64,000 bases of DNA from Pseudobdellovibrionaceae bacterium (GCA_025354795.1 JANXMF010000216.1:1138-65137); one strand, 5' to 3'; shown: positions 9,881 through 54,985, counted from the first letter of the stretch. A program made the numbers and translations. The notes: generated from the letters alone by a model not told the origin.

Positions 9881-9951
9881 CCGATTCTTAAGCAGCCTCT
9901 GTCCTACTTGGAACCGAGCGCCTGCTCGGGCCAACGAATCAGGAGGAGGCC

Positions 9952-10311
9952 ATGTTGACCAAGACGGTGATTTCCGCGTGTAAAGAGAAATTGTTGACCA
10001 TCAAATTCGAGTTGCTCAACCGGGTGCGCTCGGAATTCCAGAACCTGCGCGAACGTGAGGTGGGCGGCGATGAAGCCGACCAGGCCGTCTCCATGCTCGC
10101 GGAGAGCCGCAGTTTTTTTACGCAAATGCGTCTGCGCTCACAGCTGGTTGAGATTGAATCGGCTCTGGCCCGCATAGATGCCGGCACCTACGGCACCTGT
10201 GAAGAGACCGACGAGCTGATCGAGCCCGAGCGCCTGCTCGCGCTGCCATGGACACGCTTGAGCTTTGAAGGGGCTGAGATTCGCGAGACCGCGGCCGCGA
10301 GACGCGGCTAA
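9952..10311 (+). CDS. DksA/TraR family protein with degenerate zinc finger
   Basis: 119 aa. A coiled-coil region is followed by IDAGTYGTCEETDELIEPERLLALPWTRLSFEGAE. This aligns with the DksA C4 finger, but only one Cys is retained. Confidence 0.65.
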   Translation: MLTKTVISACKEKLLTIKFELLNRVRSEFQNLREREVGGDEADQAVSMLAESRSFFTQMRLRSQLVEIESALARIDAGTYGTCEETDELIEPERLLALPWTRLSFEGAEIRETAAARRG

Positions 10312-10312
10312 T

Positions 10313-11383
10313 TTATTTTCGTGCAATGACCATGAAGCGTGAAAATTTAAAACCGGAAGCGTAAGCGAACTTCTTGCTGCCCGAAAAATAAATTTCGCGG
10401 CAAGGATAGCGGCCGAGCAAATCGTCGGGCGAAGTGAGCTGCACGACGTGGTCATGATTCGCCATATCGGTGCCCTGAAGCACCACTGTGATTCCTTCGG
10501 GCACCCGCTCCCACCAGGTTGTCTCGGCCAGGTGTTCCAGCGCGCAATTGATCACAATCTGCGCCGGCGGCGAATGATATTTTTCGGGCTCGCTGTAGTT
10601 CAGGCTGTGAATGTCGTGGCAAAGCGCTTTAAATTTCCAGTCCTGCCACTCCCAGGTGTTGAGAAACTGGTCGGCCGTCGCCACTGCGCGGGAGTCGATA
10701 TCAAATGAGCGGATTTTAGCGATGTTCAGGCGCTCGCGCGCGAACAATAAAAACGGCAAAAGCCCGTTCCAGCCACACAGGTGCCACACCACCTGATGCG
10801 GCAAGCTCCGCTCACCGACCACCCGTTCCAGTTCCTGGCAAAGCCACAGCTTGGAAACGATTTGCCCCGATGAAAACGCGTCGGGATCAAAAACATTTTG
10901 CGGCGGTGGCTGAAAAATCGCATAGCAATTGGGCCCAGGCACGAAGTGCTCAAAAGTCCATTCGCCAACTTTCAGAAAACCCACGCGTTGATAAAAATCC
11001 AAGTTGTCCTGGCGGGGCGCGGTCCAAAAGAGTTTGACCGCGGGATGAAGCGCCATCAAGTTTTGCAACAAAGCGCGACCCAAACCTTTTCCCCGGCGCC
11101 CGGGAAGCACGATCAACCCGCGAAGGCGAAAAGTGCCGTCACCGGTCTCAAAGCCGCTCACCGCGCCGACCAATTCGTCACCGTCATAGGCGCCCAGAAA
11201 ATGAACCTGCTTTTCAAGTAGCGACGGCTCTATGCCGCCGCCAAGTTTGATCGCACTGACGGGTAAGATCGGATCCGTCCGCAGCGGCCACAGCTGCGTC
11301 TTCCACAGCGGGAGTACGCTTGCAAAATCGATACTTTTGTAGATGAAATTCACCCCCACATATGGTGGGTCTTTGGTGGACAA
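10313..11383 (-). CDS. GNAT family N-acetyltransferase fused to a Rossmann/methyltransferase-like C-terminal domain
   Basis: The acetyl-CoA binding motif is LIVLPGRRGKGLGRALLQNL. The C-terminal half (VWHLCGWNG...IRSFDIDSRAV...INCALEH) resembles a class I SAM-dependent fold. The TTG start is uncertain. Confidence 0.65.
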   Translation of the reverse strand: MSTKDPPYVGVNFIYKSIDFASVLPLWKTQLWPLRTDPILPVSAIKLGGGIEPSLLEKQVHFLGAYDGDELVGAVSGFETGDGTFRLRGLIVLPGRRGKGLGRALLQNLMALHPAVKLFWTAPRQDNLDFYQRVGFLKVGEWTFEHFVPGPNCYAIFQPPPQNVFDPDAFSSGQIVSKLWLCQELERVVGERSLPHQVVWHLCGWNGLLPFLLFARERLNIAKIRSFDIDSRAVATADQFLNTWEWQDWKFKALCHDIHSLNYSEPEKYHSPPAQIVINCALEHLAETTWWERVPEGITVVLQGTDMANHDHVVQLTSPDDLLGRYPCREIYFSGSKKFAYASGFKFSRFMVIARK

Positions 11384-11466
11384 GTCAACGCTGAAATCCC
11401 ATTCTCAAGCGCGCTGACTCCGACTAAATATTTTTTACTTACGCTGATGATGTGCCACTGGCCCCC

Positions 11467-12214
11467 TTACAAAAGTTGCTCCAACCCTGGGTGCGTGAGT
11501 TGGTGATGGGCTGGTTTACTTTTTGGATCCTTTGCGGACTCTTTCGACTGAGGCCATATCTGAAAACGCCCGCTGCAACTGAGCCATCTTAGCGCCAAGG
11601 CATAGAGCGGAAAAAACTGTATCTTGAAGACATTCAAGCTATCAAACCCATCTTTCACACCAATCACTGGATCTACTGTGCGGACAACATGCGTGCCGAA
11701 GAGGCGGTCCCAGATACAAAGCAGTGCCCCGAAATTTTTCTTAATATACGGCTCATTGTAGGCATGATGCAGATGATGTGAAGCTGGAGTGACAAATGCA
11801 AGATTAAGGATGGGAATGCTGCCAATAAACTCAGTGTGGATGAAATTCTGATAAGCGTTGGGGATTGCAAACGCCTTTCCCGCGATCTCGGCCCCGAGGG
11901 GACTGAAATGCAAAAAATCATCGTCGAAAAGATCGAAGACGCTGACCTTGTCGAGTACCTCCCGCAATGCCCGACGCAGAGACAAGAAAACCACCCCACT
12001 CGGGCTGGCGCAAGAGGTTGGAACTTTTCTTAAGCTCGTGAGCGATCGAGGTGGTGAGTAAGAGTGAGCCGATGCCCAGATTGGGCCGGGCCTCGAGTAT
12101 ATCTTCGAGCTCTGACCCCCCGAGTCCGAGCGCGGAGACCCCTAAAGCCAAAGTTGTCCCTAGAAAGGTTCGTCGCGATGGAGCCATTCCATATTTGAAA
12201 TGACTGAGCTGCAA
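11467..12214 (-). pseudogene. Probable degraded fatty acid hydroxylase / sterol desaturase family gene (frame-disrupted, eroded His boxes)
   Basis: ORF 11467-11994 carries the C-terminal family motifs HFSPLG, FIHTEF, and VTPASHHLHHAY...NFGALLCIWDRLFGTH. The expected N-terminal HxxxH and HxxHH boxes are missing. The N-terminal part lies in a different overlapping frame (11918-12214) that begins with a twin-arginine-like MAPSRRTFLGTTLALGVSALG. Confidence 0.35.
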
Positions 12215-12727: not shown

Positions 12728-14212
12728 ATGATAATATTGAGCAATAACGTCTCTCTCTTTAAAAACGGGTTGTGCGTGATTCGGCCTCAGCAACATCTTG
12801 GGACTTCGGGATATTCGCTTGTTGAAGTCATGGTGGTGGTTGCGGTTATGACCGTGGTGGCACTTGGCGTCACCTCCATTCTGCAAAACATTACGGTGGC
12901 AACAACCACACAAAAATACACTTCTGAAACCAGCAACTTTAACGAAGAGGTTCGCGCCCTACTCGCCGACCCCGAAGCTTGCCGACGAACTTTTACTAGT
13001 GCGCCTATCGTTTTGGCCTCTCCCATCAATGCGGTCATCAACCAATTGCGCGACGGGCTCAACAATGTGGTGGTGGACACGAACGTCCCGGCCACTGGAG
13101 ATTACGGCGACAACTCCGGCCGGCTGACGAAGATGGTGATCGATACCTATCAAGACACCACTCCTGGCTACGGAGTGGCGGAGTTTCGCCTGTTTTACAC
13201 TCCCAGAGGGGCCGTGCAAGGCACCAGACCTCTCGCTCGGCTCATCATGCTGCAGACTCATAAGAATGCTGGCAACGCGCTCGATCGTTGTGTGCAATTG
13301 GCGAAAATGAGCGATGGCATTTGGCAAATCGTTCCCGCCAACATGCCGTTTGATTCTTTTTTTAGTGGCGGGGCTCTCGGCATTGGTACCACTGCGCCGG
13401 TTGCCGATTTGGATGTACGCGGTCAAGTCGCGTGGGGCGACTCGCTCGGCTCCCTTAGCGTGCTAAACAGTGACCAAGGCGGAAGTATCGAACTGGGAGC
13501 GCCCGACTTAGTCACCAACCCCGTAGCGGTGGCACTGAACGAGCAGCCGGCGATCAACTTTCACTATGGCTATAACGTCATGCCTGGACCAGATGTGCAA
13601 ATTGTCAACCAGACGGCGGTTGATCTCGCCGTGTACACCACCAACGCAGGTCGGGTGCAGGTGGCCAAATTTAATGCACAGAATGGTTTCAACCCATACT
13701 ACATGTCGGTCAACTCGCCAGCTGGGGCGGGTGCGCATAAGCGGCTCGACGTCAACGGTCCGGTGAATCTTTTAGGCGGCGCAAGGTTTTTTGCCGACTA
13801 CATACCCATTTGCTCGGCCGCCGGCTGTGTGCGCATTTCCGATATGCGCCTCAAAGAAAATATCAAACCGTTGAAAAACTCGCTTGCGGCAATTGATAAA
13901 CTCCAGGGCGTGACTTTTGATTGGATTGATCCCGTAAAGTACACCCCGCGAACCCAGGTGGGGATGATCGCGCAAGAGGTTGAGAAAGTTTATCCCGAAG
14001 TGGTGCAGACCGACGGTCTCGTCGGCTACAAATCAATGACTTATGACAATCTGGTCGCACCCGCGATTGAGGCGATAAAAACGCTCTACGAGAATGCCAC
14101 TGGTTTAAAGGCGCGGGTGGACGCGCTCAAAATTAAAAATAAAAAACTGGCGCAAGAGAACGCCGAAATCCAACGCCGCCTCGAGGCTTTGGAAAAGAAA
14201 GTGGGTCGGTAG
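12728..14212 (+). CDS. Type IV pilin-like / tail-fibre-like protein with C-terminal Peptidase S74 intramolecular-chaperone domain (paralog 1 of 3)
   Basis: Prepilin-type motif LGTSG|YSLVEVMVVVAVMTVVALG with Glu at +5. Cys pair C85/C188. Fibre motifs GALGIGTTAPVADLDVRG and QGGSIELGAP..INFHYG. S74 module from ISDMRLKENIKPL (Ser371/Lys376) through GMIAQEVEKVYPEVV, ending in a coiled coil. The start codon and leader length are uncertain. Confidence 0.8.
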   Translation: MIILSNNVSLFKNGLCVIRPQQHLGTSGYSLVEVMVVVAVMTVVALGVTSILQNITVATTTQKYTSETSNFNEEVRALLADPEACRRTFTSAPIVLASPINAVINQLRDGLNNVVVDTNVPATGDYGDNSGRLTKMVIDTYQDTTPGYGVAEFRLFYTPRGAVQGTRPLARLIMLQTHKNAGNALDRCVQLAKMSDGIWQIVPANMPFDSFFSGGALGIGTTAPVADLDVRGQVAWGDSLGSLSVLNSDQGGSIELGAPDLVTNPVAVALNEQPAINFHYGYNVMPGPDVQIVNQTAVDLAVYTTNAGRVQVAKFNAQNGFNPYYMSVNSPAGAGAHKRLDVNGPVNLLGGARFFADYIPICSAAGCVRISDMRLKENIKPLKNSLAAIDKLQGVTFDWIDPVKYTPRTQVGMIAQEVEKVYPEVVQTDGLVGYKSMTYDNLVAPAIEAIKTLYENATGLKARVDALKIKNKKLAQENAEIQRRLEALEKKVGR

Positions 14213-15787
14213 ATGACCAACTTTCAAATTAAACATAGGGCAGCCGGATTTTCACTTATCGAAGCCATGGTCGTGGTGGTGGTCGTTGCCGTCATGGCTC
14301 TTGGGGTCGCCACTCTCTCGCAAAATATCTCGACCACCGCGGCCACTCAGAAATACCTGGTCAATACCAACAATTTTGCCGAAGAGATTCGCGCGCTACT
14401 CAGCGATCCCGCCAATTGCCAACAAACTTTTACCAGTGCTCCCGTAAATCTCGCCGCACTCCCGGTGGGCATTGCCAACGTGCAAGATTCCGCCGGCACC
14501 ATTCGCTACGATACCGCCCTAGGAGCGAATGCCTATGCGGATCGCGCAGGCACATTCACCAGCATGACCCTGGATCAATACAACGATGGGGGCGCCCCAT
14601 TACTTTACGGCACCGCACGCCTCACCCTGATCTTTAGCGCGACCGCGCAAGTTCCTATCAATGGTGGCCAGGCAATCAAGAAGACCATTTTATTGCAAAC
14701 GCACCGAACGCCTGGCTTCATTGTCGATGGCTGTGTAGCTTTGTCCCATATGCAAAGCCGCGTGTTCAATGCGGGCGCCCGCATCGACGAGCGGGTGACC
14801 GGTGCCGCCTGGCAAAACATTATTAATACAACTGACGCGTTTTACAATACGGGCCGGGTGGGGATAAATCTAGGGGTCGATGCCTTCGGAGTTCCCTTAG
14901 CGCCCGCGTATCCGCTCGAAGTGAGGCGAGCACTGGCGGCAGCTTCAGTCGCCTCGCCTGTCATCGCTTGGGGCGATCCCGTGGGTGGTCAAAGTCTGTT
15001 GACTTCCGTGGGAGGCGGAACCATTGAACTGAATGGCTCCCTCCCGGCCGTAGCACCTGCGGTTCCGAGTACGCCTTACGTCGATTTCCACTTTGGAAAT
15101 GGCGCTCCGGAGCAGTTCAATGTTCGGCTCCGCAACACGGCGCGGGGTCGTCTCACCATGGCGAGTGCAACCAAAGCAAGCATCGCCGAATTTCTAACCG
15201 GCACTCACCCTCTCGCCCCAAATCCGAACACCGGGACCCTGATTATCAACGGCACTCCCCTCGACATCTCGACTTACAATCCCTTCTACGCGATGGAAGT
15301 CCGCGGCGATCTCAATGTCAATGGTACGCTTTTCGTATCCAATAATCCCCTGGCTAGTTGCACCAACGCCGGTTGCACCGGAGCCTCCGACATTCGCTTG
15401 AAGAAAAACATCAAACCCCTGACCAATTCCCTCGAGCAGATCTTGCAACTGCGCGGAGTCAGCTACCAGTGGAAAGACAAAGAGCGCTTTGGCAAAGGTC
15501 CACAAATCGGGTTTATCGCCCAAGAGGTTGAAAAAGTTTATCCCCTCCTAGTAGAGACCGACCCGCGTAGCGGCCTCAAATCCGTCAACTATAGCCATAT
15601 GATTGCGCCGGCCGTTGAAGCCATCAAACATTTGCACACCAATTTGATGCGTCTGGAAAGTAAATCGGAACAATTGAGCGCGGATGACGAGCAATTGGCA
15701 CTCGATAATTCCGAACTCAAGAAACGTATTCTGGCGCTCGAAGAAAAAGTGCGCACCCGCAAGGCTGTAGCTCGGAGGAAAAAGTGA
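14213..15787 (+). CDS. Type IV pilin-like / tail-fibre-like protein with C-terminal Peptidase S74 intramolecular-chaperone domain (paralog 2 of 3)
   Basis: The ATG directly abuts the paralog 1 stop. Prepilin-type motif MTNFQIKHRAAG|FSLIEAMVVVVVVAVMALG. Cys pair C69/C174. Fibre motifs GGGTIELNG...PYVDFHFG. S74 module ASDIRLKKNIKPL (Ser392/Lys397)...GFIAQEVEKVYPLLV, ending in a coiled coil. Confidence 0.85.
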   Translation: MTNFQIKHRAAGFSLIEAMVVVVVVAVMALGVATLSQNISTTAATQKYLVNTNNFAEEIRALLSDPANCQQTFTSAPVNLAALPVGIANVQDSAGTIRYDTALGANAYADRAGTFTSMTLDQYNDGGAPLLYGTARLTLIFSATAQVPINGGQAIKKTILLQTHRTPGFIVDGCVALSHMQSRVFNAGARIDERVTGAAWQNIINTTDAFYNTGRVGINLGVDAFGVPLAPAYPLEVRRALAAASVASPVIAWGDPVGGQSLLTSVGGGTIELNGSLPAVAPAVPSTPYVDFHFGNGAPEQFNVRLRNTARGRLTMASATKASIAEFLTGTHPLAPNPNTGTLIINGTPLDISTYNPFYAMEVRGDLNVNGTLFVSNNPLASCTNAGCTGASDIRLKKNIKPLTNSLEQILQLRGVSYQWKDKERFGKGPQIGFIAQEVEKVYPLLVETDPRSGLKSVNYSHMIAPAVEAIKHLHTNLMRLESKSEQLSADDEQLALDNSELKKRILALEEKVRTRKAVARRKK

Positions 15788-17256
15788 AATCGTTAAGACC
15801 CTCCGGTTATTCATTGATAGAATTGTTGGTGGTGGTGGCGATCTCCTCGATAGTCGCGCTCGGTGGAGCGGCTTTGATCCAACGCACCATGACCGCCACT
15901 TCTACCCAGCAACTGCATACCAACGCGGCGGATTTCAAAGAAGAGTTGCGCGCCATGCTCAGTCGCCCCGATGCGTGTTTCAATTCCTTTGGCGGGATTG
16001 TACTCAACGGTGCGACCGATCAACTCTATGCGGCTCTGAACGACGTCGACGGCCTTCATCCGCTGCAAAAGTCTTATATCTCGAATGCAGGCGGGGCGGT
16101 TTCCACCGCGAATCCCATTGAAAATACTTTGAATACTCAAGTCACCCAGTTTCGCCTGCTTAACTATCAGGATCTTCCCAACGTCCCCTCCTATGGCATC
16201 GCCACCCTGCGGATGCTCGTCAACACTCAAGCCCAGGTGGATGGTTCGCAAACACTCACGCGCGACATCGTCATCCGCACGAAAAAGGATGCGGCCAATG
16301 CTTTGGTCTACTGTGTCGCTCAAAGCAAAACGCTGGGGACCATCTGGCAACAGGCGCCAGCACCCAACAATACCGATCTGATTTTCAACGGCGGCGGCGT
16401 TGGCGTCGGCGCGCCTGTTCCGGGGGGCATTCCCTTGAATGTGAGCGCAAGAACCGCGGGCAGTTGGACGCTTGGGTGGGGCGCGGTTGGGGGCGCAACC
16501 CAAAGTGCTTTTATCAATGATCAGGGCGGCTCGATTGAACTGGGCGCTCCCGCCACTCCCTTAACTCCGGCGCAGAACACCGTTGCCAATGGTGCACCGT
16601 ATGTGGACTTCCATACCCCGTCCGCTCCCGCAGTGGATTTCAACATGCGCATCCAAAATAAAGCAGACCAAGTTTTTACCGTGGACTTTCCCTCGGGTGG
16701 AGCCCCGCAGGAGATTGCGCGCTTTCAAGGCAACCTCGGTTTCTCGCAGTTGGGTGTAGGGCTCACGCCATCAGCGGCCTACACGGTCGATGTGGCGCCT
16801 CACATGAATCTCGAAACTGGACTCTTTATCAACAACGTACAGGTGCTCGGCTCCACTGGGCCATGGCCACCCATTTCCGACGCGCGGTTAAAAGAAAAAG
16901 TAAAGCCGCTGGTGGATCCGCTCGGGCACTTGCTAAAAATCCAAGGCTACAGTTTTGAATTTAAGGACAAGGTCCGATTCACTAAGGATCCGCAGATTGG
17001 CTTGATGGCCCAAGAGGTGGAGAAGGTCTACCCCGAAATAGTCATCAACGACAATAGCTCAGGGTTCAAATCAATGACATACGACCGGCTTTTGTCTCCC
17101 CTCGTTGAATCTGTTAAATCTATTTACACGTCGCTCACCGACCTTGAAGGTCAGGTGACCGAACTGGTGGAAAAGCACCGAAAATTGAAAGAAGACAACT
17201 TCGCGTTTAAAAAACGCCTAACGGCACTCGAACAGCAGCTCGCGCAACCTGAATAG
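15784..17256 (+). CDS. Type IV pilin-like / tail-fibre-like protein with C-terminal Peptidase S74 intramolecular-chaperone domain (paralog 3 of 3)
   Basis: The GTG start overlaps the paralog 2 stop (GTGA) and GGAGGA lies 6 nt upstream. Prepilin-type motif MKSLRPSG|YSLIELLVVVAISSIVALG. Cys pair C65/C177. Fibre motifs QGGSIELGAP...PYVDFHTP. S74 module ISDARLKEKVKPL (Ser365/Lys370)...GLMAQEVEKVYPEIV, ending in a coiled coil. Confidence 0.85.
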   Translation: MKSLRPSGYSLIELLVVVAISSIVALGGAALIQRTMTATSTQQLHTNAADFKEELRAMLSRPDACFNSFGGIVLNGATDQLYAALNDVDGLHPLQKSYISNAGGAVSTANPIENTLNTQVTQFRLLNYQDLPNVPSYGIATLRMLVNTQAQVDGSQTLTRDIVIRTKKDAANALVYCVAQSKTLGTIWQQAPAPNNTDLIFNGGGVGVGAPVPGGIPLNVSARTAGSWTLGWGAVGGATQSAFINDQGGSIELGAPATPLTPAQNTVANGAPYVDFHTPSAPAVDFNMRIQNKADQVFTVDFPSGGAPQEIARFQGNLGFSQLGVGLTPSAAYTVDVAPHMNLETGLFINNVQVLGSTGPWPPISDARLKEKVKPLVDPLGHLLKIQGYSFEFKDKVRFTKDPQIGLMAQEVEKVYPEIVINDNSSGFKSMTYDRLLSPLVESVKSIYTSLTDLEGQVTELVEKHRKLKEDNFAFKKRLTALEQQLAQPE

Positions 17257-17271: not shown

Positions 17272-18954
17272 GTGAAGAAACTTAGTATCGCAAAAAATCT
17301 AGCGCTCGCTTTGGTCGCGCTGACCCTCCTTCTCAACGCTGTGTGGGCGGGTTACCATTCGTTTTGGACGGATTCGGAAATGTGGGCGGTGATTTCGGTG
17401 CGTTCAATGTTCGCCACTACCGGTGAATATAACGGTGCCGTTAAACCACTCTTGGATTTTCTGCTGTGGGTGTGTTTTCAAGCGGCCGAGCATTTGGCGG
17501 TCCACCCGATGTTCACCGCGCGCGCGCTCTTTGCCCTCAACGAACTTTTGACCGTGGGCTTGTTTTTTTATCTGTGCCGGCGCTTGAGCCAAAGCCGGGG
17601 CCTGGCTTTTTTAATCACGCTGCTGCTGGTTTCAAACTCATTTTTCATCAAGCGCTTTTGTCATGTGCGCTCCGATTTGCTCATCACCAATTTTCTACTG
17701 CTCCTCTGTTGGCTACAGGACACCCCACGTTGGCAGCGGGCCTCGAACACTGTGCGCCTCGGTTACGTCATGCTTTTCACGCTTGTGGCAATAACCGTCA
17801 CACCAAAAGCCGTACTGCCTTTTGCGCTATGGACCCTGGCTTTTGCACGCTCCGAGCTACGCCAAACCTTTGCTGGTCGTCGCGGCCTGATTTTGATTGG
17901 GGCGGGATTGTGGATGGCGATCGCCTATGCCAGCTGGAACTGGCAAGCCTTACGTTTTTTATCACTTTCATTGGCCACCACCGCCGAGCACGCGTATTTC
18001 GGCGCGTACCGCTTCCAGCATGTGGGGCGCTTTATAAGGGAAAATGCCGTGATTCTCGCGGTATTTGCATTCAATCTTTACCTGCTCATCCGCCGCGCGC
18101 AGGTGCAAAGGCCCGAATATTTTGTATTCGCGAACCTGGTATTGATCGAGCTCCTGTTCTATCCCGACCGTCTGCCTTTTTTTATCGCCGCCCTCATTCC
18201 GTTTTGGCTGCTACCGCTCAGCTGTGCAAAAGATTTCTTGGCGCGCATCCTGGCGCGGCGTCGGCTTTACGCCGCAACACCATACATAATTTTAGTTTAT
18301 GGGATGATCAATCTCGGGCTTTGGAGTTATGTGGTCGAGACCTTTCATACCAGCGATGAACAGGAAGAGATCGTCACCTGGCTCGAGGAAGCACGGGTGC
18401 CGTTGAGTACCCTGGTGGTGTATGACCCGGTCGGACTCATGCCGTTTTCTCCCTCGCTCAACTGGTTTGTCGGGCCTGACGAAATTTGGAACTCGATAGT
18501 GCTCTTAAAACTTGAAGCAGACCCTCCCGCGGTGATTTTTTTCACCATGCGTCTGTTTTTATTGGGCACGGAATTTTTGGATTTCCTACAGGCAAACTAT
18601 TGGTCCGATGGTCACGGGATTTTTATTCGTCGCGTGCCCTTTCCGACTGAAACCACGCCGTTCAATTGCGCGACCCTCAAAGACTTTGTTCTTAAAAACT
18701 GGCCGAAGGCCACCGCAGCCCCGCAACGCATTTACTACCTTAACGCGTTGAATAAGGCGGGCGAATCATTGGAAGTGCCCGGCAGCGAAGTGTGGCGGGA
18801 AGAGGCTCGCGGTTTCCGCTGGACCGATCTCGCTCGCTGTAAAGATTTGCGCCTTCCCAAAGACCTGGCGCGCCTGGACGTGCTGCCTGCGCGGCTCGTT
18901 AATCCCACCCACTTAGAACTATCTACGTCGTTTCGATTTGATCCCGAGTACTAG
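17272..18954 (+). CDS. GT-C fold membrane glycosyltransferase, ArnT/PMT_2-like
   Basis: 560 aa with about 10 or more hydrophobic segments and a C-terminal soluble domain of about 190 aa. The first loop FWTDSEMWAV...VKPLLDFLLW...ARALFALNELLTVGLFFYLCRRL matches the DE...KPPL...R pattern of ArnT/PMT-type enzymes. Confidence 0.6.
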   Translation: MKKLSIAKNLALALVALTLLLNAVWAGYHSFWTDSEMWAVISVRSMFATTGEYNGAVKPLLDFLLWVCFQAAEHLAVHPMFTARALFALNELLTVGLFFYLCRRLSQSRGLAFLITLLLVSNSFFIKRFCHVRSDLLITNFLLLLCWLQDTPRWQRASNTVRLGYVMLFTLVAITVTPKAVLPFALWTLAFARSELRQTFAGRRGLILIGAGLWMAIAYASWNWQALRFLSLSLATTAEHAYFGAYRFQHVGRFIRENAVILAVFAFNLYLLIRRAQVQRPEYFVFANLVLIELLFYPDRLPFFIAALIPFWLLPLSCAKDFLARILARRRLYAATPYIILVYGMINLGLWSYVVETFHTSDEQEEIVTWLEEARVPLSTLVVYDPVGLMPFSPSLNWFVGPDEIWNSIVLLKLEADPPAVIFFTMRLFLLGTEFLDFLQANYWSDGHGIFIRRVPFPTETTPFNCATLKDFVLKNWPKATAAPQRIYYLNALNKAGESLEVPGSEVWREEARGFRWTDLARCKDLRLPKDLARLDVLPARLVNPTHLELSTSFRFDPEY

Positions 18955-21900
18955 TTGCCTAATAAAGCCGGCGTCAATATGTTCAAAACGCACATGAAGA
19001 TTGAAAGAACCAAAGCTGTACTTAGCGTGGTCGTTCCCACCCATCAGCGGCCGCACTGCGTGCGGCGTTTACTTGTCAGTCTGGCGCGCCAAACTTTGCC
19101 CAGCACCGATTTCGAAATTATTCTGGTGAGCAATTTTATCGAGCCTCGGCTGCAAAAAATCGTGGACAAATGGCGCGCGGCCACCGGGCACAGGATTCAA
19201 CTCTTGGTGGCAGGGCAACTCGGGGTCAATCGCGCGCGCAATTTGGGCCTTCGTCACAGTGACGGCGAAGCCGCGTTGTTGCTCGACGATGATTGCTATC
19301 TTCCCGATCCCAAATATCTTGAGGCGTTGCTGAAGGTGCACGCCCAGACTCCCGGGGTGTTGGCGGTGGGCGGGGCTTATCTCGATTCGCCGGAATTGGG
19401 TGGCGCCGGCACTTACTACAACCTTCATTGCAACCAATGGCTCGGCGGCGATGAGGCCCACGCCCGCTTGACCACGCGCCTGCTTGGCGGCGCGGTCTCG
19501 TATAAAATGCCACCACTGCGCGCCCATGGACTTGGTTTTGATGAAGCCATTCCCTATGGCGGTTCGGAAACGGAATTTCATGATCGCTTGGTGGCGGCGG
19601 GCTTCCAACTGATGTTCCACCCACGCTTGGCCGTGGTTCACGCTTGCCACATTTCCACAATAACTCTACTGCGTAAAGCTTATCGCCAAGGCGAGGGTCA
19701 CGCGCGTATAGGAAAGAGCGCTGCGTCGGAAGCGGATCAAAAACCGCGGCGGCGTTCTCTCCATCAACGGGTCTACGCGCGCGGCTTTACTCTGGGCGAA
19801 AAATCCTTTGCGCGCACAAAAGCACCGAGCGGCGAGCGCACGATCTACTGGCTTTATTTTTTTTCGCTGCTGCGGGTGCTGCAGCAGTTGGCATTGGTGC
19901 CGCTGCGAGCGGCGGGTGGTGCGGTTTTTTGGAGCGCTTATAGGCTGCTCTACCGCATTGGAGGAATCGCCTGGGCGCTGACCGTCAAAACCTATTGGAT
20001 TATCTATCCAGTCCCGCGGCATATCTATTGGAGCGCGGTTCGCGCTAAGGGTTTGGCGCGCACCCTACTCAGCAAAATTTATTGGCGGGTGTTGAGGCCG
20101 CACCGACTGCTGGCGCGGGCTACGCAAATGTATTGGACCTTTTATCCTGTCACTTATTATTTGAAATCGGGTGGCTGGCGGCGGCCGCTCGAGTTGCTGC
20201 GGCTCAAGATGCCGCTGACGTATCCTGCGTTTGAAACTTCGGGCCCTCCGCGCTGGACGCTTCGCTATCACGAGGAATTCCGCTCCTGGTCGGAACTTTA
20301 TGTGCGCACTGTGGCACTCGACAGCCCGTGGTTTCATAAAGCCGACGAGGTTCGGCAGAGTGGCTTGCAACCGCAGCTGAATTTCGCAGCCTCGCAAGAG
20401 ATCGTTACTGCTGAATTGGACGTGGAAATCTGCGTGAACGTAAGGGTCTCGCAAATGGCTTCAATGCACGCACAAATCTTAGAGCGCTTGCGACGCTGCG
20501 AACGCAAACTCGGACTCTGTTTCGTTTTGGATGCCCGGCCGCGGCCGCGGCTCCTCGCGGATTTTTTGAGTGCCGCCCGCCAATTGCCACAAGTTGAGTG
20601 GTTTTCGCTGGAGATGTCGCTGGCGGGTATTTTAATTCCTCAGTCCGGCTTCGAAGCCTTTCGCCGCTTTCATATTTTTTCCCGCGCGTGCGAACATTTA
20701 AACCTCCCTTGGCGACCCCATTACAAGGTGGAACCGCCGGTGTGCCTATTGGCGCTCGAGCATCCGGCGCGTTTCACACCGGCTTACTTGTCCGCGGCCG
20801 TGGCTCCCATCGTGTCGGTGATCATTCCCCACCATTGTGATCTCACCTATTTAAGGGCGGTGCTAGCGTGCTTCTGCCGGCAGAATCTACCGCGTTCGGA
20901 GTTTGAGATTTTAATTGTCGACAACGGAGTCGCCGCGGATCTTGCGGCGCCGGCCGATGCTGCGCACCTGATCGCCGATTTTTCCGAACTCAATCTCGCG
21001 TTACACACCCTCGAATCCACCAGTGCGGAACTCTTCCTGTCCGGCCACGCGCGCAACGTCGGACTCAAGCATGCCAAAGGCCGAATCATTCAGTTCATGG
21101 ATTCGGACATTCTTTTTGGCGAGAACTTTTTGCGCGAGCTGATTGCGCGCATGGAAACTTGCGATGTGGTCATGGCCAAGCGCTCAATGTTGCGCGAAGG
21201 TTGCCGGCCGGGCGACCCTGCCGGCGTCCAAGAGACGGATTTTTATCAGGAGAATGAATACTGGGAAAATTTCAAGAGCGCAGTCCACTGGATCGATCTC
21301 GCGGACCATTGGAAATACGCCTGCACCTATTGTTTAGCGGTGAAACGTTCCGTCCTTGCGCTCTCGGGCCCGTTTGATCCGGAATTCACCATGTACGGCT
21401 TCGAAGATGTGGATCTGGCGTTTCGCTTATTCAAACAAAATGCGCGGTTTGGCTTTGCCCAGTCGTGGGTCTTGCATCTCTTCCCCAGCCGCGACAAGCA
21501 CAATTATCATGTCAACGAAGCCCGGCGCGCGCGGGCCCTGCAGCTCTCCGCCCTGACGCTGTTTAAGCTGCGCCCCGAAAAGCTGACCTTCATACTCTGC
21601 CAAACTTATTTTGCGCCGACGTTGCAACAGTGGTTGCAACAGGCAGCACCTCGCCTACTCGGCAAACGCAAGCATGTTGTGGCGCCGCCCGCAGTGGAGC
21701 GCAGCTCCGCTGGAATTTCGATTGTGATTCCATGTCTGAATGAGGAGCGCACCATCGCGATCGCGGTCGATCAAGCTTTTGCGGCGCTGGAAAAGTGCGG
21801 TGGGGGCGGCGAGGTGCTCGTGGCCGATAACGGCAGCGACGACCGCAGCCGCGAAATCGCTCGCCGCCATGGCGCGCGCGTGGTCTCGTGCCCTGAGCGG

Positions 21901-22386
21901 GGCTATGGCGCCTGTTTGCGCGCCGGGTTACACTCCGCGGCGTTCGAGTATTTGGCCATGGTCGACGCCGATCTTTCCTATCCGTTGCTTGAACTGCCAA
22001 ATTTGATTGCGGAAATCGACAAGGGCTGTGATTTTGTTTTGGGCAATCGTTTGCGCGGCTTGATTGAGCCACGCGCCATGCCGTGGTTGAATCGTTATGT
22101 CGGCACTCCGGTGCTGTCGTGGATTTTGCGCCGGCTCTACGCCCTTCCGACCTATGACTGCAACAGTGGTATGCGCGCCTTCACCCGTTCGCATTTTTTA
22201 GCGATGAATCTGCGCAGCTCGGGCATGGAGCTCGCGTCTGAGATGCTGGTGCGCGTGGCGCAACTGAACTTACGCTATGGCGAAGTCGCGATTTCTTTTC
22301 ACAAAGATCAGCGCCGCGGAAAATCGCATTTGAATCGCTGGCGTGATGGCTGGCGACACTTGCGCTTGATTTTACGCAACCCCTAA
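18955..22386 (+). CDS. Multidomain glycosyltransferase with three GT2 (GT-A fold) domains, the last DPM1/ArnC/GtrB-like
   Basis: GT2-1 is LSVVVPTHQRP...LLLDDDC. GT2-2 is IVSVIIPHHCD...FMDSDIL. GT2-3 is ISIVIPCLNEERTI...VADNGSDDRS...AMVDADL. A hydrophobic YW-repeat linker spans residues 296-412. Alternative ATG starts exist at 18979 and 18994. Confidence 0.8.
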   Translation: MPNKAGVNMFKTHMKIERTKAVLSVVVPTHQRPHCVRRLLVSLARQTLPSTDFEIILVSNFIEPRLQKIVDKWRAATGHRIQLLVAGQLGVNRARNLGLRHSDGEAALLLDDDCYLPDPKYLEALLKVHAQTPGVLAVGGAYLDSPELGGAGTYYNLHCNQWLGGDEAHARLTTRLLGGAVSYKMPPLRAHGLGFDEAIPYGGSETEFHDRLVAAGFQLMFHPRLAVVHACHISTITLLRKAYRQGEGHARIGKSAASEADQKPRRRSLHQRVYARGFTLGEKSFARTKAPSGERTIYWLYFFSLLRVLQQLALVPLRAAGGAVFWSAYRLLYRIGGIAWALTVKTYWIIYPVPRHIYWSAVRAKGLARTLLSKIYWRVLRPHRLLARATQMYWTFYPVTYYLKSGGWRRPLELLRLKMPLTYPAFETSGPPRWTLRYHEEFRSWSELYVRTVALDSPWFHKADEVRQSGLQPQLNFAASQEIVTAELDVEICVNVRVSQMASMHAQILERLRRCERKLGLCFVLDARPRPRLLADFLSAARQLPQVEWFSLEMSLAGILIPQSGFEAFRRFHIFSRACEHLNLPWRPHYKVEPPVCLLALEHPARFTPAYLSAAVAPIVSVIIPHHCDLTYLRAVLACFCRQNLPRSEFEILIVDNGVAADLAAPADAAHLIADFSELNLALHTLESTSAELFLSGHARNVGLKHAKGRIIQFMDSDILFGENFLRELIARMETCDVVMAKRSMLREGCRPGDPAGVQETDFYQENEYWENFKSAVHWIDLADHWKYACTYCLAVKRSVLALSGPFDPEFTMYGFEDVDLAFRLFKQNARFGFAQSWVLHLFPSRDKHNYHVNEARRARALQLSALTLFKLRPEKLTFILCQTYFAPTLQQWLQQAAPRLLGKRKHVVAPPAVERSSAGISIVIPCLNEERTIAIAVDQAFAALEKCGGGGEVLVADNGSDDRSREIARRHGARVVSCPERGYGACLRAGLHSAAFEYLAMVDADLSYPLLELPNLIAEIDKGCDFVLGNRLRGLIEPRAMPWLNRYVGTPVLSWILRRLYALPTYDCNSGMRAFTRSHFLAMNLRSSGMELASEMLVRVAQLNLRYGEVAISFHKDQRRGKSHLNRWRDGWRHLRLILRNP
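19840..20190 (+). repeat. Coding tandem repeat: aromatic-Trp(-Arg) motif units inside the triple-GT2 protein
   Basis: The units are RTIYWLYFF, KTYWIIYPVPR, HIYWSAVRAKGLARTLLS, KIYWRVLRPHRLLARATQ and MYWTFYPVTYYLKSGGWRRP, with irregular spacing of 11-18 aa. Confidence 0.6.
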
Positions 22387-23156
22387 AAACGCCAATGCCT
22401 AGCCAAACCACGGACCACAAAAATACCCAGGGTTGCCGAGGCACGAAGACGATTGAGCTTTTCCCTCTGGCGATAAATAATCCAAGTTTCGCGCAAACTG
22501 CGCCATTTGTCGGATCCGCGCGAACCCAGAACAATGCGGTAGCGCACCAAATCTTGCTGCAAACCGATGCATGAACTTCCGCCCTGGAGTAGCGACAACC
22601 ACAGGGCGAAGTCCTCGCACCCCATCTCGGGAAAACGTACCTTTCCCACCCGCCGCCGATTCAACATCACGCTCGAGCACAGGATGCAGTTCTGCTGCAA
22701 GAGTCGCTGATAGGAAATCCGCGGCGGTACCGAGAGCACGCGCCCGACGCGCACGCCCCCGGTGTCGATACGGCGAAAGCTAGTGCTGCAGAACCCACCC
22801 GCCGCGCCTTCTAAAACTCGCACCTGGCGCGCGAGTTTTTCCGGCAACCACACATCGTCGCTGTCGAGAAAAGCAATGTAGTCGTCCTCGGCGTTTTCCA
22901 ACCCACAGTTCCGCGCAGCACTTACGCCTGGACTCGCAGCCGTCAAGACCCGAATGCGCGGGTCGCGCCGGGCATAGGCGTGGGCAATAAGGCCGGATTC
23001 ATCGCCGCTCAAAGGATCAAGAATTAAGTAAAGCGTCCAGTGTGGATAAGTCTGTGCGCAAACCGAGTCGATGGTTGCCGTTAAAAAGCGTGCGGCGTTA
23101 AATACCGGAGTGAGAATCGATACCGGCGGCGAACTCGGAAATTTTACTTTCGACAT
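22383..23156 (-). CDS. Glycosyltransferase family 2
   Basis: MSKVKFPSSPPVSILTPVFNAARFLTATIDSVCAQTY...FLDSDDVW shows the GT-A nucleotide-binding start and a DxD motif. The long ORF extends to 23204; the ATG at 23156 was chosen. It overlaps the upstream gene by about 59 nt. Confidence 0.8.
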   Translation of the reverse strand: MSKVKFPSSPPVSILTPVFNAARFLTATIDSVCAQTYPHWTLYLILDPLSGDESGLIAHAYARRDPRIRVLTAASPGVSAARNCGLENAEDDYIAFLDSDDVWLPEKLARQVRVLEGAAGGFCSTSFRRIDTGGVRVGRVLSVPPRISYQRLLQQNCILCSSVMLNRRRVGKVRFPEMGCEDFALWLSLLQGGSSCIGLQQDLVRYRIVLGSRGSDKWRSLRETWIIYRQREKLNRLRASATLGIFVVRGLARHWRF

Positions 23157-23982
23157 AGTAGGGCCTCTCCGCAAATTGCATCCAGAGGCGGTTGGCGCGC
23201 ACAACCGCCGCGTAGAGCACGACCAAAGCGATCACAGTCGGATTTTTTTCCGCCCACAGATGGTGCCAAACCGTAGCGCCCGGCCCGTGCGCGGGCCGCG
23301 AAGGCGAGCGGCCGTGAAGCCGCGCCCGTTGAAAAAACGCAAGCAAGGAATGACCGCAGTGATGGTAAACAAAAAGCTCCGGCAGGTGCTGAATGCGAAT
23401 GCCATGACGCCTAAGATTTTCGCACAGGTCCAATTCTTCACCGCCAAAAAAGTGCTGCAGCGAAAACGGAAAGCTGCGACCTGCAAAAGCCATCTTCGGC
23501 AGTAAAATATTTCCCGCTAGCGCCAGGGGTTGAGGCGCATTGAGATGCGCCTTTAACCACAGATTCGCCATGGAATTATAGGCCCGGCGCAACACCCCAC
23601 TGTTTTCCGGTGAACGATAAAAACCCGCATAGGCGCTGGTGCCGCGGGTAAAGCGCATGCTCTGTGCAAAATAAGCTAAAAAACCGTCGGGCAACTCGCA
23701 GTCTTCGTCGAGAAAATAAACCATGGACCCGCGCGCTTCGTGGTAAAGACGATTGCGCAGTTCAGAGAGATTCCCGCCCTCGCTGTGTATCCAGCGTAGC
23801 GCCGGAAAGTTTTGCAGCAACGCGGGCGGCATGGATTCCAGAGTGTTGGGACTCCCCACTAAGACTTCATAACTGACGCCATGCTGCGTTTGATTTTGCA
23901 AACTGGTGAGAAGGCGAAAGAGGTGGGTATAGACGGCCTGCGAGGAGATCGCGATGCTCACGCTTACCTTTGGCATCGCCAA
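23098..23982 (-). CDS. GT2-like glycosyltransferase, paralogous to the first domain of the triple-GT2 protein
   Basis: KVSVSIAISS...YEVLVGS...VYFLDEDCELPDGF. The segment FGGEELDLCENLRRHGIRIQHLPELFVYHHC parallels YGGSETEFHDRLVAAGFQLMFHPRLAVVHAC in the 1143-aa protein. Confidence 0.7.
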   Translation of the reverse strand: MAMPKVSVSIAISSQAVYTHLFRLLTSLQNQTQHGVSYEVLVGSPNTLESMPPALLQNFPALRWIHSEGGNLSELRNRLYHEARGSMVYFLDEDCELPDGFLAYFAQSMRFTRGTSAYAGFYRSPENSGVLRRAYNSMANLWLKAHLNAPQPLALAGNILLPKMAFAGRSFPFSLQHFFGGEELDLCENLRRHGIRIQHLPELFVYHHCGHSLLAFFQRARLHGRSPSRPAHGPGATVWHHLWAEKNPTVIALVVLYAAVVRANRLWMQFAERPYYVESKISEFAAGIDSHSGI

Positions 23983-24053: not shown

Positions 24054-24596
24054 TTAAACGCCTTGGTCCTTCGAGCGTAAAATGCGTGTGCGAATCTGAA
24101 ACTTAATGAAGAAACAGATTTTAATGGAGGGTGTGCTCAGGCGCCGATGGGTTTCAGGAAAATAGCCGCGAAACCACACCATCGGATTTTTTAAAATCGC
24201 GAGCAACACTCTGAAACGCCACAAATTACCGCGAACCGTAACGAATGGCCACAGCAGCAAGGCCTGCACGCGCCAGAGGTGGCTAGTTAAAAGGCGCCAC
24301 GGGATTTGGATCCGCCAAAAATTACTCTTTACAAAAGTGAGGGGCCAGAGCACCCCTATTCGCAATCGCCAAAGATGACCTTGGATCAAAAAAATCGGCC
24401 GTCGGAGCTTCCACCCCAGAAGCCGCAGCCGCCAAAGATTCCCGGCCAAAAACACGACCCCGAGCTTGAGCCGCCAGCGGTTGGCTTTGAACTCAAAAAA
24501 CGCTCGGTCGATTTCGCACAACGGGATCCGGCGTTTCCACAGCCCCACCTTCGCCCGTAAATACAACTGGCGCAGACGCAGCTGTCGGTTATTCAT
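24054..24596 (-). CDS. Small basic Trp/Arg tandem-repeat protein (function unknown)
   Basis: 180 aa. Its ATG lies inside an ATGAATAA overlap with the radical SAM stop, which indicates translational coupling. It has about six units of the form x(N/H)(L/F)WR(L/I/V/F)(R/Q). Confidence 0.6.
   Translation of the reverse strand: MNNRQLRLRQLYLRAKVGLWKRRIPLCEIDRAFFEFKANRWRLKLGVVFLAGNLWRLRLLGWKLRRPIFLIQGHLWRLRIGVLWPLTFVKSNFWRIQIPWRLLTSHLWRVQALLLWPFVTVRGNLWRFRVLLAILKNPMVWFRGYFPETHRRLSTPSIKICFFIKFQIRTRILRSKDQGV
24168..24488 (-). repeat. Coding tandem repeat, WR motif units with 14-21 aa spacing
   Basis: The units are KANRWRLKLGVVFLA, GNLWRLRLLGWKLRRPIFLIQ, GHLWRLRIGVLWPLTFVKS, NFWRIQIPWRLLTS, HLWRVQALLLWPFVTVR and GNLWRFRVLLAILKNPMVWFR. 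They are visible on the + strand as recurring CGCCA(A/C/G)A. Confidence 0.65.
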
Positions 24597-25968
24597 TCCT
24601 CAGCCTTTGCACTTCACAGATTTGGAAAAACTGTTGAAATTCTGGGAACTCATGCAGAAAATTCAAGCCCCGTCGCTCTTCCAACCTGCGAATACCGCGG
24701 GCAAAAAGGCAGCGGGCCCACTGAATTCTCTTGTCGCTAGTGTCGGCGTCGTGGTTGATGGCTTCGCCCATGCTGCGCACGTAGTTTGAGTACTCCGCCC
24801 AGTTCTGGCCCCATTTGGGGCGGGCGCGAAAATAGCTGTAATCCGACTCATGGTGTACCAAGCGCTCGGCTGTCGCAGCTAGGTGATTTTTGAAATCGGG
24901 CGTGAGGATCTCTGGCGCTAGCCACAGCGGATAAATGACTGAGTTTTCAATAAATGGAATGGATATAGCGAAGCGCCGACGCAGTGGCGCGAGAAAATCG
25001 ATGAGAGCGGCAAAACTCGTCACGCAGAGAGTGTTGATCGTCGCGGAAACGGAAACTTGGGAGTGCTGAATGCGCCTCTCCAAAAGCGTGAGAAGATTTT
25101 CCTCGAAGCGCGCCCATTCGAGACCGAAACGGATGAACTCCGCACGCTTGCCGACCGACTCCATCGACAGATCGATCAGGCAGATGCGGCCGCCACGGCC
25201 GAGAAGCTCCAATACCTCAAGTAGTCTTTCAAATAACTTAGGTTTACAATTCAAATTGGTGACGATTCTTAGGCGACAGCGCACATTGCCGTGCAGTTCG
25301 AGGAGGCGATGAGTTTTGAGCAAGAGCTCGGGAAAATCCGCGTGCATGGTAGGTTCCCCGCCTACAAAACTCACGGTCTTCAAGCCGCCGGCCACCGTCG
25401 TGAACCAGGCCCAATAGGTGTCGGTAAAACCCGCGGGCGCCTGGGCGTTTTCCCAATCGTAGTCGGCCTGATTCATTCCCCCGTATTGCAAATCTTCTTG
25501 CATCCAACGCGATGAATTCCCCCGCCAACAGTAAACACATTTTAGATCACAGAGGTTGCCGAGCTGAACTTCTAAAAAAGGAATGGCGCTAGCCTTCAGC
25601 GCGCGGGCGCCGGCATCCAGGCGCAGCGGATCGGCGCCCTTGAGGCTCTTTAGCACGTTTTGCGCACCGATGCGGGGCGAAGGCTGGCCCGAACTCTCAG
25701 CCTTCCAACACGGCGAGCAATCGGGATGACGAGTGCCCTTAAACATTTCCAGCCGACGATCGAGCAAGTATTGATTGTTGAGAATGCTGTCGGTGCCAAA
25801 GTCTCCCACGTCCTTCGCCGTCACCCGGTAATGGGGAACGCGGCAGCAAGTGCGCACGAAACCCTTAGTCAAATCGATGGTCGGCTGATTCCATCGCAAC
25901 TCGCACAACGTGTCCTCAGGAAGGCCTTGGACACAAAGAGAGCCATCGGGTTTGTATTGGTCCAACAA
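24589..25968 (-). CDS. Radical SAM enzyme with N-terminal Cys-rich extension
   Basis: FLEVQLGNLCDLKCVYCW is the CxxxCxxC cluster motif at residues 139-146. VSFVGGEPTMH is a GGE-type SAM motif. The N-terminal 90 aa carry C12, C22, C41-C42 and C84xxC87. Confidence 0.8.
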   Translation of the reverse strand: MLDQYKPDGSLCVQGLPEDTLCELRWNQPTIDLTKGFVRTCCRVPHYRVTAKDVGDFGTDSILNNQYLLDRRLEMFKGTRHPDCSPCWKAESSGQPSPRIGAQNVLKSLKGADPLRLDAGARALKASAIPFLEVQLGNLCDLKCVYCWRGNSSRWMQEDLQYGGMNQADYDWENAQAPAGFTDTYWAWFTTVAGGLKTVSFVGGEPTMHADFPELLLKTHRLLELHGNVRCRLRIVTNLNCKPKLFERLLEVLELLGRGGRICLIDLSMESVGKRAEFIRFGLEWARFEENLLTLLERRIQHSQVSVSATINTLCVTSFAALIDFLAPLRRRFAISIPFIENSVIYPLWLAPEILTPDFKNHLAATAERLVHHESDYSYFRARPKWGQNWAEYSNYVRSMGEAINHDADTSDKRIQWARCLFARGIRRLEERRGLNFLHEFPEFQQFFQICEVQRLRNE

Positions 25969-46727: not shown

Positions 46728-48149
<1,422 letters not shown>

Positions 48150-49031: not shown

Positions 49032-49037
49032 ATCCCG

Positions 49038-50564: not shown

Positions 50565-50578
50565 ACGAAGGGATGCTC

Positions 50579-52157: not shown

Positions 52158-52187
52158 ATGTATATTCGACTTGAGGGGCTGTGTAAA

Positions 52188-54350: not shown

Positions 54351-54457
54351 CCCCCTCACCCATTTCCGCTCTGATCACTAGCTTTTTCATTCTGAAACTC
54401 AATGTTTTCAGGAACTTTGCCGATTGTTCCATGTAGAGCAAAGGGAGTCCAGCCAAA

Positions 54458-54984: not shown

Positions 54985-54985
54985 T

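Follow-up and report, generated by a model that had tools for sequence, protein, structure and literature searches.

What does a polytopic, glycosyltransferase-like membrane protein do when its gene directly follows a run of genes for pilin-like fibers? The question is raised by a stretch of 64,000 nucleotides (nt) of DNA from a Pseudobdellovibrionaceae bacterium (GCA_025354795.1 JANXMF010000216.1:1138-65137), which we call the window and whose positions we count from its first letter. Three paralogous pilin-like genes (12728–17256, + strand) are followed there by a gene for a protein of 560 amino acids (aa; 17272–18954, +) and another for a protein of 1143 aa (18955–22386, +). An earlier note on this DNA had read the 560-aa protein as an ArnT/PMT-like transferase of the GT-C type and the next gene as ending in a polyprenyl-phosphate-sugar synthase of the GT2 type, and it had proposed, by analogy with the pilin arabinosyltransferase TfpW of Pseudomonas aeruginosa, that the pair is dedicated to glycosylating the fibers. 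Comparative genomics supports this proposal, the acceptor being indicated by the gene neighborhood only, and we consider it probable, though well short of certain, that the cluster is a dedicated periplasmic glycosylation module for pilin-like fiber proteins. This reading draws on the fold and membrane topology of the GT-C, on its conserved motifs, on the families to which the domains belong, and on a synteny that extends over two unrelated partner families.

The 560-aa Protein Belongs to an Undescribed GT-C Family

The open reading frame (ORF) of the 560-aa protein begins with a GTG at 17272, 15 nt after the end of the third paralog (17256), and ends at 18954, exactly as described earlier. 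All the peptides quoted for it are present: FWTDSEMW (aa 31–38) of the first-loop pattern, KPLLDFLLW, ARALFAL, and YLCRRL. Pfam and NCBIfam scans of the protein gave no match at E up to 0.1, the PMT_2 and ArnT models included. When 76 relatives were scanned singly, 12 reached Pfam PMT_2 (best 8.8e-10), and the other matches among them, to PMT (three), DUF2142 (one), and Glyco_transf_22 (one), are all to GT-C families.

The structural evidence is more direct. An AlphaFold2 model built from a 120-sequence alignment has a predicted local distance difference test score (pLDDT) of 93.1 and a predicted template-modeling score (pTM) of 0.92; a model from a 5-sequence alignment (pLDDT 53) was discarded and left out of the fold search. 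Foldseek comparison with the Protein Data Bank (PDB) placed ArnT on top (5f15/5ezm; E 6.7e-6, TM-score 0.46–0.48), and the top 21 matches, all at probability 1.0, are GT-C enzymes: ArnT, STT3/OST, AftB, ALG12, PglB, DPY19, ALG9, AftA, and Pmt. TM-scores of the top 20 range from 0.38 to 0.50, with Pmt1 at rank 21 scoring 0.27, and proteins without the GT-C fold, unrelated transporters, appear only at a probability of 0.2 or below. As modeled, the 560-aa protein is a GT-C-fold enzyme, structurally closest to ArnT. The earlier assignment holds for the fold, but not for the expected family match, and the sequence family of the protein is missed by current models.

The family is not small. An exhaustive profile search with hidden Markov models, covering 1.84 billion representatives (50% identity), returned 431 members at E ≤ 1e-3 and 175 at E ≤ 1e-30. 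A word-indexed homology search found only five members (the protein and four relatives), even when given a 76-sequence profile; since that search is low in sensitivity, the apparent rarity of the family there is an artifact. Across alignments of 76–120 members, E36, R133, and D135 are invariant, and S35, W38, K58, R84, T177, P178, K179, P302, F303, and P310 are conserved in at least 90%, while D34 is invariant among the five closest sequences only. The motifs quoted for the protein are conserved and not chance matches.

The helices of the model give 11 transmembrane (TM) segments with the N terminus inside, which agrees with the 7–13 TM helices, the cytoplasmic N terminus, and the acidic motif of the first extracytoplasmic loop that characterize the GT-C superfamily. 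The arrangement fits the positive-inside rule: the combined Lys and Arg density is 18/57 for loops predicted to be cytoplasmic and 9/100 for those predicted to be periplasmic. The 11-TM domain (aa 1–358; 17272–18345, +) is followed by a predicted periplasmic alpha/beta domain of about 200 aa at the C terminus (aa 359–560; 18346–18951, +). In this topology model the conserved polar residues D34/S35/E36, K58, R133/S134/D135, and T177/P178/K179 are all periplasmic, in line with the placement of the DSE loop that the glycosylation proposal calls for. The acidic motif W-x-D34-S35-E36-x-W directly follows TM1, and the codons of D34-S35-E36 (17371–17379, +) specify what may be the catalytic base or a metal site of the enzyme, to judge from its conservation, its predicted position in the first extracytoplasmic loop, and its register with "PDET" of Escherichia coli ArnT. 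The second-loop motif R133-S134-D135 (17668–17676, +), whose Arg and Asp are invariant in 120 sequences, aligns with D158 of ArnT in the comparison of the family profile with PDB sequences.

The ArnT sequence alignments served for motif register only, as the similarity of the family profile to ArnT is nonsignificant (E 0.18 against the PDB; hhalign probability of 1% against E. coli ArnT). In the weak alignment with ArnT of C. metallidurans, RSD(135) falls on "LD" (D158) and "RLPFF" on "KLPGY" (Y345). The weak hhalign alignment with the E. coli enzyme sets "DSE" on "DE," "VKP" on "EKP," and "RSD" on "VLD."

Pilin-Like Genes Adjoin the GT-C Gene in Most Loci Examined

The three genes upstream of the GT-C gene encode pilin-like/S74 paralogs (paralog 1, 12728–14212; paralog 2, 14213–15787; paralog 3, 15784–17256; all +), each with Pfam N_methyl and Peptidase_S74 matches and a prepilin motif (GYSLVEVMV in paralog 1). 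Their prepilin N termini, G/YSLVE, G/FSLIE, and G/YSLIE, are joined to a C-terminal Peptidase_S74 chaperone/protease domain, in which the SDxRLK motif is intact and a coiled coil stands at the terminus. This fusion architecture is rare, N_methyl being found in only 2 of the 120 best S74 matches. From paralog 1 to the 1143-aa gene, the five + strand ORFs are tightly packed, with gaps of 0, –4, +15, and 0 nt, and the paralogs are the presumed acceptors.

We collected all retrievable loci that encode a member of the GT-C family and searched each for genes homologous to those of the window and for prepilin motifs. A locus search by exact peptide patterns, based on a 20-sequence alignment, gave 3 genome and 6 metagenome loci. 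The neighborhood statistic rests on 14 informative loci, the window included, out of the family of 431 representatives; two loci too short to judge (L021 and L024) were left out of the count. In 12 of the 14, a prepilin-motif gene directly adjoins the GT-C gene (the window, L001, L002, L004, L008, L011, L013, L015, L018, L019, L020, and L023). The motif is specific: in 168,113 aa of stop-free frames it was found 22 times in the forward sequences and never after reversal. All organism-labeled loci recovered come from metagenome-assembled genomes (MAGs) of Bdellovibrionales or Bdellovibrionota.

The linkage takes two forms. In the closest lineages (L001 and L002/L003; 42–44% identical), the window's order recurs, with pilin-S74, GT-C, double-GT2, and DPM1-like GT2 genes followed by convergent GT2 genes; L002/L003 carry radical S-adenosylmethionine (SAM) genes beyond these. 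In nine further lineages (L004, L008/L017, L011, L013, L015, L018, L019, L020, and L023), the GT-C gene lies divergently and directly beside a gene for a Cys-rich prepilin-motif protein of 560–625 aa; the GT-Cs of these lineages are 26–37% identical to the window protein (L015 and L023 standing outside the direct comparison). These neighbors form a second, unannotated pilin-like family, marked by a conserved "SQ[FY]S[TS]x[FY]" after the helix and a Cys-rich C terminus, "YYTCR...CC..G.C" (L013 8230–10173, L011 8340–10037, L004 5135–7009, L020 468–2261, and L023 4043–5815, all on the – strand). Four of the loci (L004, L011, L013, and L023) also hold one or two smaller pilin-like genes (~270 and ~250 aa).

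We found no similarity between the two partner families beyond the prepilin N-terminal helix, and the second family has no homolog in the window. The globular part of the partner differs, two unrelated families serving in this role, but the prepilin anchor is kept, which argues that the enzyme recognizes a membrane-anchored, pilin-type substrate. The association of the GT-C with pilin-like genes that the earlier note had suggested looking for in other genomes is therefore real and, with its second partner family, broader than expected. The adjacency in 12 of the 14 loci is the comparative evidence that supports the interpretation of the cluster as a glycosylation module.

A Conserved, Probable Donor-Synthase Domain Accompanies the GT-C

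The listed TTG start of the 1143-aa ORF (18955–22386, +) abuts the stop of the GT-C gene, and the true start is probably the ATG at 18979 or 18994. The predicted terminal GT2 of the DPM1/ArnC type is there, with the peptides ISIVIPCLNEERTI, VADNGSDDRS, and VDADL in the last 230 aa, but it is one of three such domains and not the only one: the protein is a fusion of three Glycos_transf_2 stretches that are split in relatives. Domain 1 (aa ~20–250; 19012–19704, +) is EpsD/MftF/TarS-like with a DDD motif (NCBIfam MftF 1e-43 and EpsD 2e-42, both under cut-off; TarS, PDB 5tze, 5e-11). Domain 2 (aa ~612–900; 20788–21654, +) has a DSD motif, matches Pfam Glyco_tranf_2_2 and Glyco_trans_2_3, and is TuaG/HfsG-like by NCBIfam. 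Domain 3 (aa ~915–1141; 21697–22377, +), with a DAD motif, resembles polyprenyl-phosphate sugar synthases of the ArnC/DPM1/AglJ type.

The assignment of domain 3 rests on NCBIfam (AglJ 4e-32, dolichyl-phosphate hexose transferase 4e-25, PpgS 4e-15, and ArnC 1e-13), on its closest solved structures (ArnC, 2e-11, and the Pyrococcus DPMS, PfDPMS, 7.5e-9), and on BLASTP against E. coli ArnC (26% identity, E 1e-15). All of these scores are far under the equivalog cut-offs (AglJ, 111.8 vs. 325 bits; ArnC, 51 vs. 529 bits), so the sugar cannot be named. A scan for hydrophobic segments after aa 915 found none of the C-terminal TM helices of ArnC and GtrB. Between domains 1 and 2, a basic-aromatic region (aa ~295–420; 19837–20214, +) with six "[YF]W" motifs at aa 298–393, spaced by ~11–27 residues, is a probable membrane-interface anchor; no family could be assigned to it, the middle region as a whole has a single weak hydrophobic segment, and a comparable region is present in the L011 homolog.

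In relatives the 1143-aa protein is split into a double-GT2 protein of 877–936 aa and a separate GT2 of 235–255 aa. Domain 3 is 62–67% identical to the stand-alone genes of L001, L002, L013, and L015, compared with 37–43% for the double-GT2 part, and is thus the best-conserved gene of the cluster. In L002 the last 14 nt of the double-GT2 gene (14601–14614) are shared with the DPM1-like gene, and in the window the two genes are fused in frame (21600–21700); this fusion, specific to the window sequence, may be a real one or a one-base assembly difference. A weaker relative of domain 3 (28% identical) is found in L010, a Bdellovibrionota MAG, where a GT2 gene and a DPM1-like GT2 gene (SIIIPCLNEERAI...) lie directly upstream of the GT-C homolog (8297–11686). 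As this synthase stands beside the GT-C in a locus that has no pilin-like gene, it provides independent support for the pairing of donor synthase and GT-C.

With ArnT as the top structural match of one protein and ArnC as the top solved-structure sequence match of the other, the pair could be an ordinary ArnC/ArnT system for lipid A aminoarabinose, located beside fiber genes by chance. The likeness is indeed the closest structural one, with the DE, (E)KP, xLD, and KLPxY positions of ArnT in register and ArnC the best solved relative of domain 3. However, the 560-aa protein has no significant sequence similarity to ArnT, matches neither the PMT_2 nor the ArnT model, and carries Phe in place of the phosphate-binding Tyr of ArnT; domain 3 lacks the C-terminal helices of ArnC and remains at one-tenth of its cut-off (51 bits vs. 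529). Homologs of arnA, arnB, arnD, and arnE/F are all missing from the cluster around the GT-C gene, unlike in the E. coli operon, and a chance neighborhood is hard to reconcile with a pilin linkage kept in 12 of the 14 loci. We consider this explanation extremely improbable and, given the missing arn genes and the conserved linkage, rejected it.

A Ser/Thr-Rich Segment Follows the Membrane Helix

Ser/Thr-rich stretches after the N-terminal helices had been put forward as candidate acceptor sites, among them STTAATQKY, and these do fall within a Ser/Thr-enriched segment shared by both partner families: 6–9 of the 23 residues at mature positions 23–45, directly after the membrane helix, are Ser or Thr in 12 of the 13 listed GT-C-adjacent pilin-like genes. 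In two nonadjacent small pilin-like genes the same segment has 2–3 of 23, and the proteins as a whole are 11–21% Ser plus Thr. The segment is placed where the GT-C active site could reach it, but the pattern is suggestive only, a lead and not evidence.

Part of the segment could also fit a different kind of chemistry. At mature positions ~26–28, paralogs 1 and 2 of the window carry an NIT or NIS sequon, as do the homologs from L001 and L002, and STT3 and PglB are among the top structural matches of the GT-C. Combined with the many cytoplasmic GT2 domains, this could mean that the GT2s build a lipid-linked oligosaccharide and that the GT-C is an en bloc oligosaccharyltransferase like PglB/STT3, transferring possibly at the N-I-T/S sequon after the helix. 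The sequon is, however, missing from paralog 3 and from the entire second partner family, and neither a flippase nor an initiating transferase of the diphosphate-forming kind is present in the cluster. ArnT, a monophosphate-donor enzyme, is both the best match and the one with which the motifs are in register, and the most conserved partner is a monophosphate-sugar synthase of the ArnC/DPM1 type. En bloc transfer seems to us improbable.

Convergent Neighbors Suggest a Complex Glycan

Downstream of the 1143-aa gene, four genes run on the opposite strand. The first encodes a TuaG-like GT2 (22383–23204, –; Pfam GT2 6e-27; TuaG 1e-60, under cut-off) that is 50–55% identical in L001, L002, and L013, and its stop codon and that of the 1143-aa ORF share a 4-nt overlap. 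The second is an EpsD/MftF-like GT2 (23098–23982, –), 46–49% identical in the same three loci and ~30% in L004 and L023. The longest-ORF calls of the two overlap by 107 nt (23098–23204), and an internal ATG ("MSKVKFPSS...") is the probable start of the downstream gene. A 180-aa protein with no family match (24054–24596, –) has five basic-aromatic "LWR" repeats, of the form "xLWRxR" and spaced by ~14–21 residues; these and the "[YF]W" repeats of the 1143-aa protein look like amphipathic membrane-interface repeats. The last of the four is a twitch-domain radical SAM enzyme (24589–25968, –; NCBIfam NF033640, 216 bits vs. a cut-off of 170), 49% identical in L011 and 33% in L002.

Related clusters also contain homologs of the radical SAM enzyme and of both convergent GT2 genes. 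Radical SAM enzymes, the twitch-domain NF033640 type included, are found beside the GT-C in most of the longer related loci; L013 (11750–15488) and L015 have three such genes in a row between the GT-C and the DPM1-like GT2, and L002 (5509–7787 and 18492–21653) has in addition a B12-binding radical SAM enzyme, a methyltransferase, a sulfotransferase, and 2-oxoglutarate oxygenases. The radical SAM enzymes may act on a sugar or on a Cys-rich protein. The extra GT2 domains, the two convergent GT2 genes, and the conserved radical SAM gene make it probable that the glycan is more complex than one sugar.

Such an inventory could also belong to a surface polysaccharide. The GT-C might decorate a nonprotein glycan, such as a surface polysaccharide or the O-chain of lipopolysaccharide (LPS) produced by the neighboring GT2s, in the manner of the Gtr- and GT136-type side-chain systems, and the pilin-like proteins would then be partners that bind, export, or are embedded in the glycan rather than acceptors. 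The five GT2 domains of the window include TuaG-, EpsD-, and TarS-like ones, the double-GT2 architecture recalls bifunctional polymerases, and chondroitin synthase is among the PDB matches. Most characterized bacterial three-component systems act on glycans (PMC11127046), and S74 domains usually end glycan-binding fibers (PMC10769870). Against this, the clusters contain no Wzx/Wzy, ATP-binding cassette exporter, Wza/OPX, initiating transferase, or ligase, and no polymerase or exporter was found around the window's operon. In L004 and L023, moreover, the GT-C is accompanied by three pilin-like genes and only one small GT2, and over all loci the adjacency to pilin-like genes is tighter and more widespread than that to any GT2. 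We regard a nonprotein acceptor as the most serious of the alternatives but, on balance, unlikely.

The surroundings of the cluster are those of a bacterial chromosome segment, with a GC content of ~53% and grpE/dnaJ, lon, nuo, atp, and parAB-gidA-mnmE genes. A scan for promoters and terminators gave counts at the level of shuffled sequence. The atpD/G/A, parB/parA, mnmG, and mnmE genes are grouped at 46728–61069 (–), a typical origin-proximal arrangement.

Proposed Mechanism and Points against It

Under the reading that we favor, a dedicated glycosylation module for the pilin-like proteins, the genes could act in five steps. First, judging from its family, domain 3 would charge polyprenyl phosphate with the sugar of a nucleotide-sugar donor on the inner side of the membrane, where the basic-aromatic middle region would keep it. 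Second, a flippase, or the GT-C itself in the way suggested for TfpW, would bring the lipid-linked sugar across to the periplasmic leaflet. Third, the GT-C, with D34/E36, K58, R133/D135, and K179 at its periplasmic surface, would move the sugar onto the pilin-like proteins anchored by their prepilin helices, the likely site being the Ser/Thr-rich segment just outside the membrane; the conserved neighborhood is what suggests the acceptor. Fourth, building or tailoring of the glycan may fall to the remaining four GT2 domains, together with the twitch radical SAM enzyme. Finally, the S74 chaperone/protease domains would mature the fibers. In this scheme we infer which donor is used, how it is flipped, and which protein and which site accept the sugar, the gene neighborhood being our only guide to the acceptor.

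Several observations weigh against the model. Two loci lack the expected neighbors: in L006, the most distant of the relatives examined, the GT-C has no pilin-like and no GT2 gene beside it, and L010 lacks a pilin-like neighbor. A set of five GT2 domains with a radical SAM enzyme resembles a pathway for a polysaccharide or complex glycan more than a one-sugar system, and ArnT, the closest solved structure, modifies a lipid rather than a protein. The Ser/Thr-rich stretch would lie within the alpha1 helix of a canonical type IV pilin, a position that is not known to be glycosylated. A search of the cluster at 9.9–26.8 kb (ORFs of at least 100 aa at 22.3–26.8 kb, and the genes upstream) found no GtrA-, ArnE/F-, Wzx-, or MATE-like flippase and no initiating phosphoglycosyltransferase. 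The window encodes no type IV pilus machinery, no type II secretion machinery, and no prepilin peptidase.

Relation to Known Systems

Among described systems, the closest analog in gene arrangement is TfpW of P. aeruginosa group IV, a GT-C pilin arabinosyltransferase encoded immediately downstream of pilA. TfpW has a cytoplasmic N terminus, 11 predicted TM helices, an essential acidic motif in loop 1, and a C-terminal domain in the periplasm; its donor is lipid-linked, and no flippase has been assigned to it. The window's GT-C shares the position beside a pilin gene, the acidic motif in the periplasmic first loop, and the periplasmic C-terminal domain, and both appear to draw on a lipid-phosphate-linked donor made by separate enzymes (a prediction in our case), with no obvious flippase for either. 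The two differ in other respects. TfpW is described as Emb/Aft-like, with a C-terminal domain of tetratricopeptide repeats (TPRs) and decaprenyl-phosphate-arabinofuranose, made via DprE1/E2, as its donor, whereas the window's GT-C is closest to ArnT and has a mixed alpha/beta C-terminal domain. Neither the d-arabinofuranose (d-Araf) pathway (DPPR synthase and DprE1/E2) nor TPR families were found among the window genes scanned. The partner here is an ArnC/DPM1-type synthase with four further GT2 domains and a radical SAM enzyme, and the pilin-like neighbors are proteins of 490–625 aa, some with an S74 chaperone domain at the end.

Other systems share the logic of a separate donor synthase. ArnT (GT83) works with ArnC, the synthase of undecaprenyl-phosphate-Ara4FN (Und-P-Ara4FN), as discussed above. 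Three-component periplasmic systems (GtrA/GtrB/Gtr* and the GT136 systems; Kelly et al. 2024, PMC11127046) consist of a synthase, a flippase, and a GT-C. The window cluster resembles them in combining a polyprenyl-phosphate sugar synthase with a GT-C acting in the periplasm, but a flippase was not found in it, and a pilin-like protein, rather than an O-antigen, is its likely acceptor. In protein O-mannosylation (Ppm1/DPM1 with Pmt, GT39) of actinobacteria and eukaryotes, a DPM1-type synthase without TM helices of its own likewise works with a GT-C, and some relatives of the 560-aa protein match Pfam PMT or PMT_2. On the outer side of the membrane, Pmt-type GT-Cs modify Ser and Thr residues of secreted proteins, and the window's GT-C may, by analogy, do the same; it differs in having neither MIR domains nor a Pfam match of its own and in its apparent dedication to the neighboring pilin-like substrates. 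Taken together, as the protein falls outside the ArnT and PMT_2 models and the arn operon, lacks the arabinofuranose pathway and TPRs of TfpW, and comes with no flippase, it appears to be a TfpW/Pmt-like worker outside any described family.

The fibers themselves have a counterpart in the MAT fibers of Bdellovibrio bacteriovorus, a subgroup of S74 proteins with a signal peptide and a conserved beta-rich N-terminal domain (PMC10769870). They share with the pilin-S74 paralogs the S74 chaperone/protease end with its SDxxxK motif and their occurrence in Bdellovibrio-type bacteria, but have the signal peptide and beta-rich domain in place of the prepilin N terminus. The text of that paper (PMC10769870) contains no word beginning with "glycos."

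Implications

What our analyses newly define is a sequence family of 431 representatives, a high-confidence GT-C fold for it, and a specific genomic link to pilin-like proteins in Bdellovibrionota. To our knowledge, bacterial GT-C enzymes that glycosylate proteins are few, the known examples being Pmt, PglB, and TfpW. If the fibers are glycosylated, the family would provide a second pilin-specific GT-C, independent of the first, and would probably receive a CAZy family of its own. As the module is compact enough for reconstitution in E. coli, the hypothesis can be tested directly.

A bolder version of the proposal, which we put forward as a speculation with the odds against it, is that the 560-aa protein is the founder of a new CAZy-level GT-C family, apparently confined to Bdellovibrionota and dedicated to large pilin-like proteins. 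Its substrates here would combine the anchor of a type IV pilin with a phage-tail-fiber S74 trimerization module, and the product would be a glycosylated, trimeric surface fiber of predatory bacteria that depends on pilus machinery and whose glycan is tailored by radical SAM chemistry. In Pseudomonas, pilin glycosylation has been reported to protect against pilus-specific phages. Should the fibers of the Bdellovibrionota prove to be glycosylated, the module would bear on how predatory bacteria build and mask surface fibers that may contact their prey.

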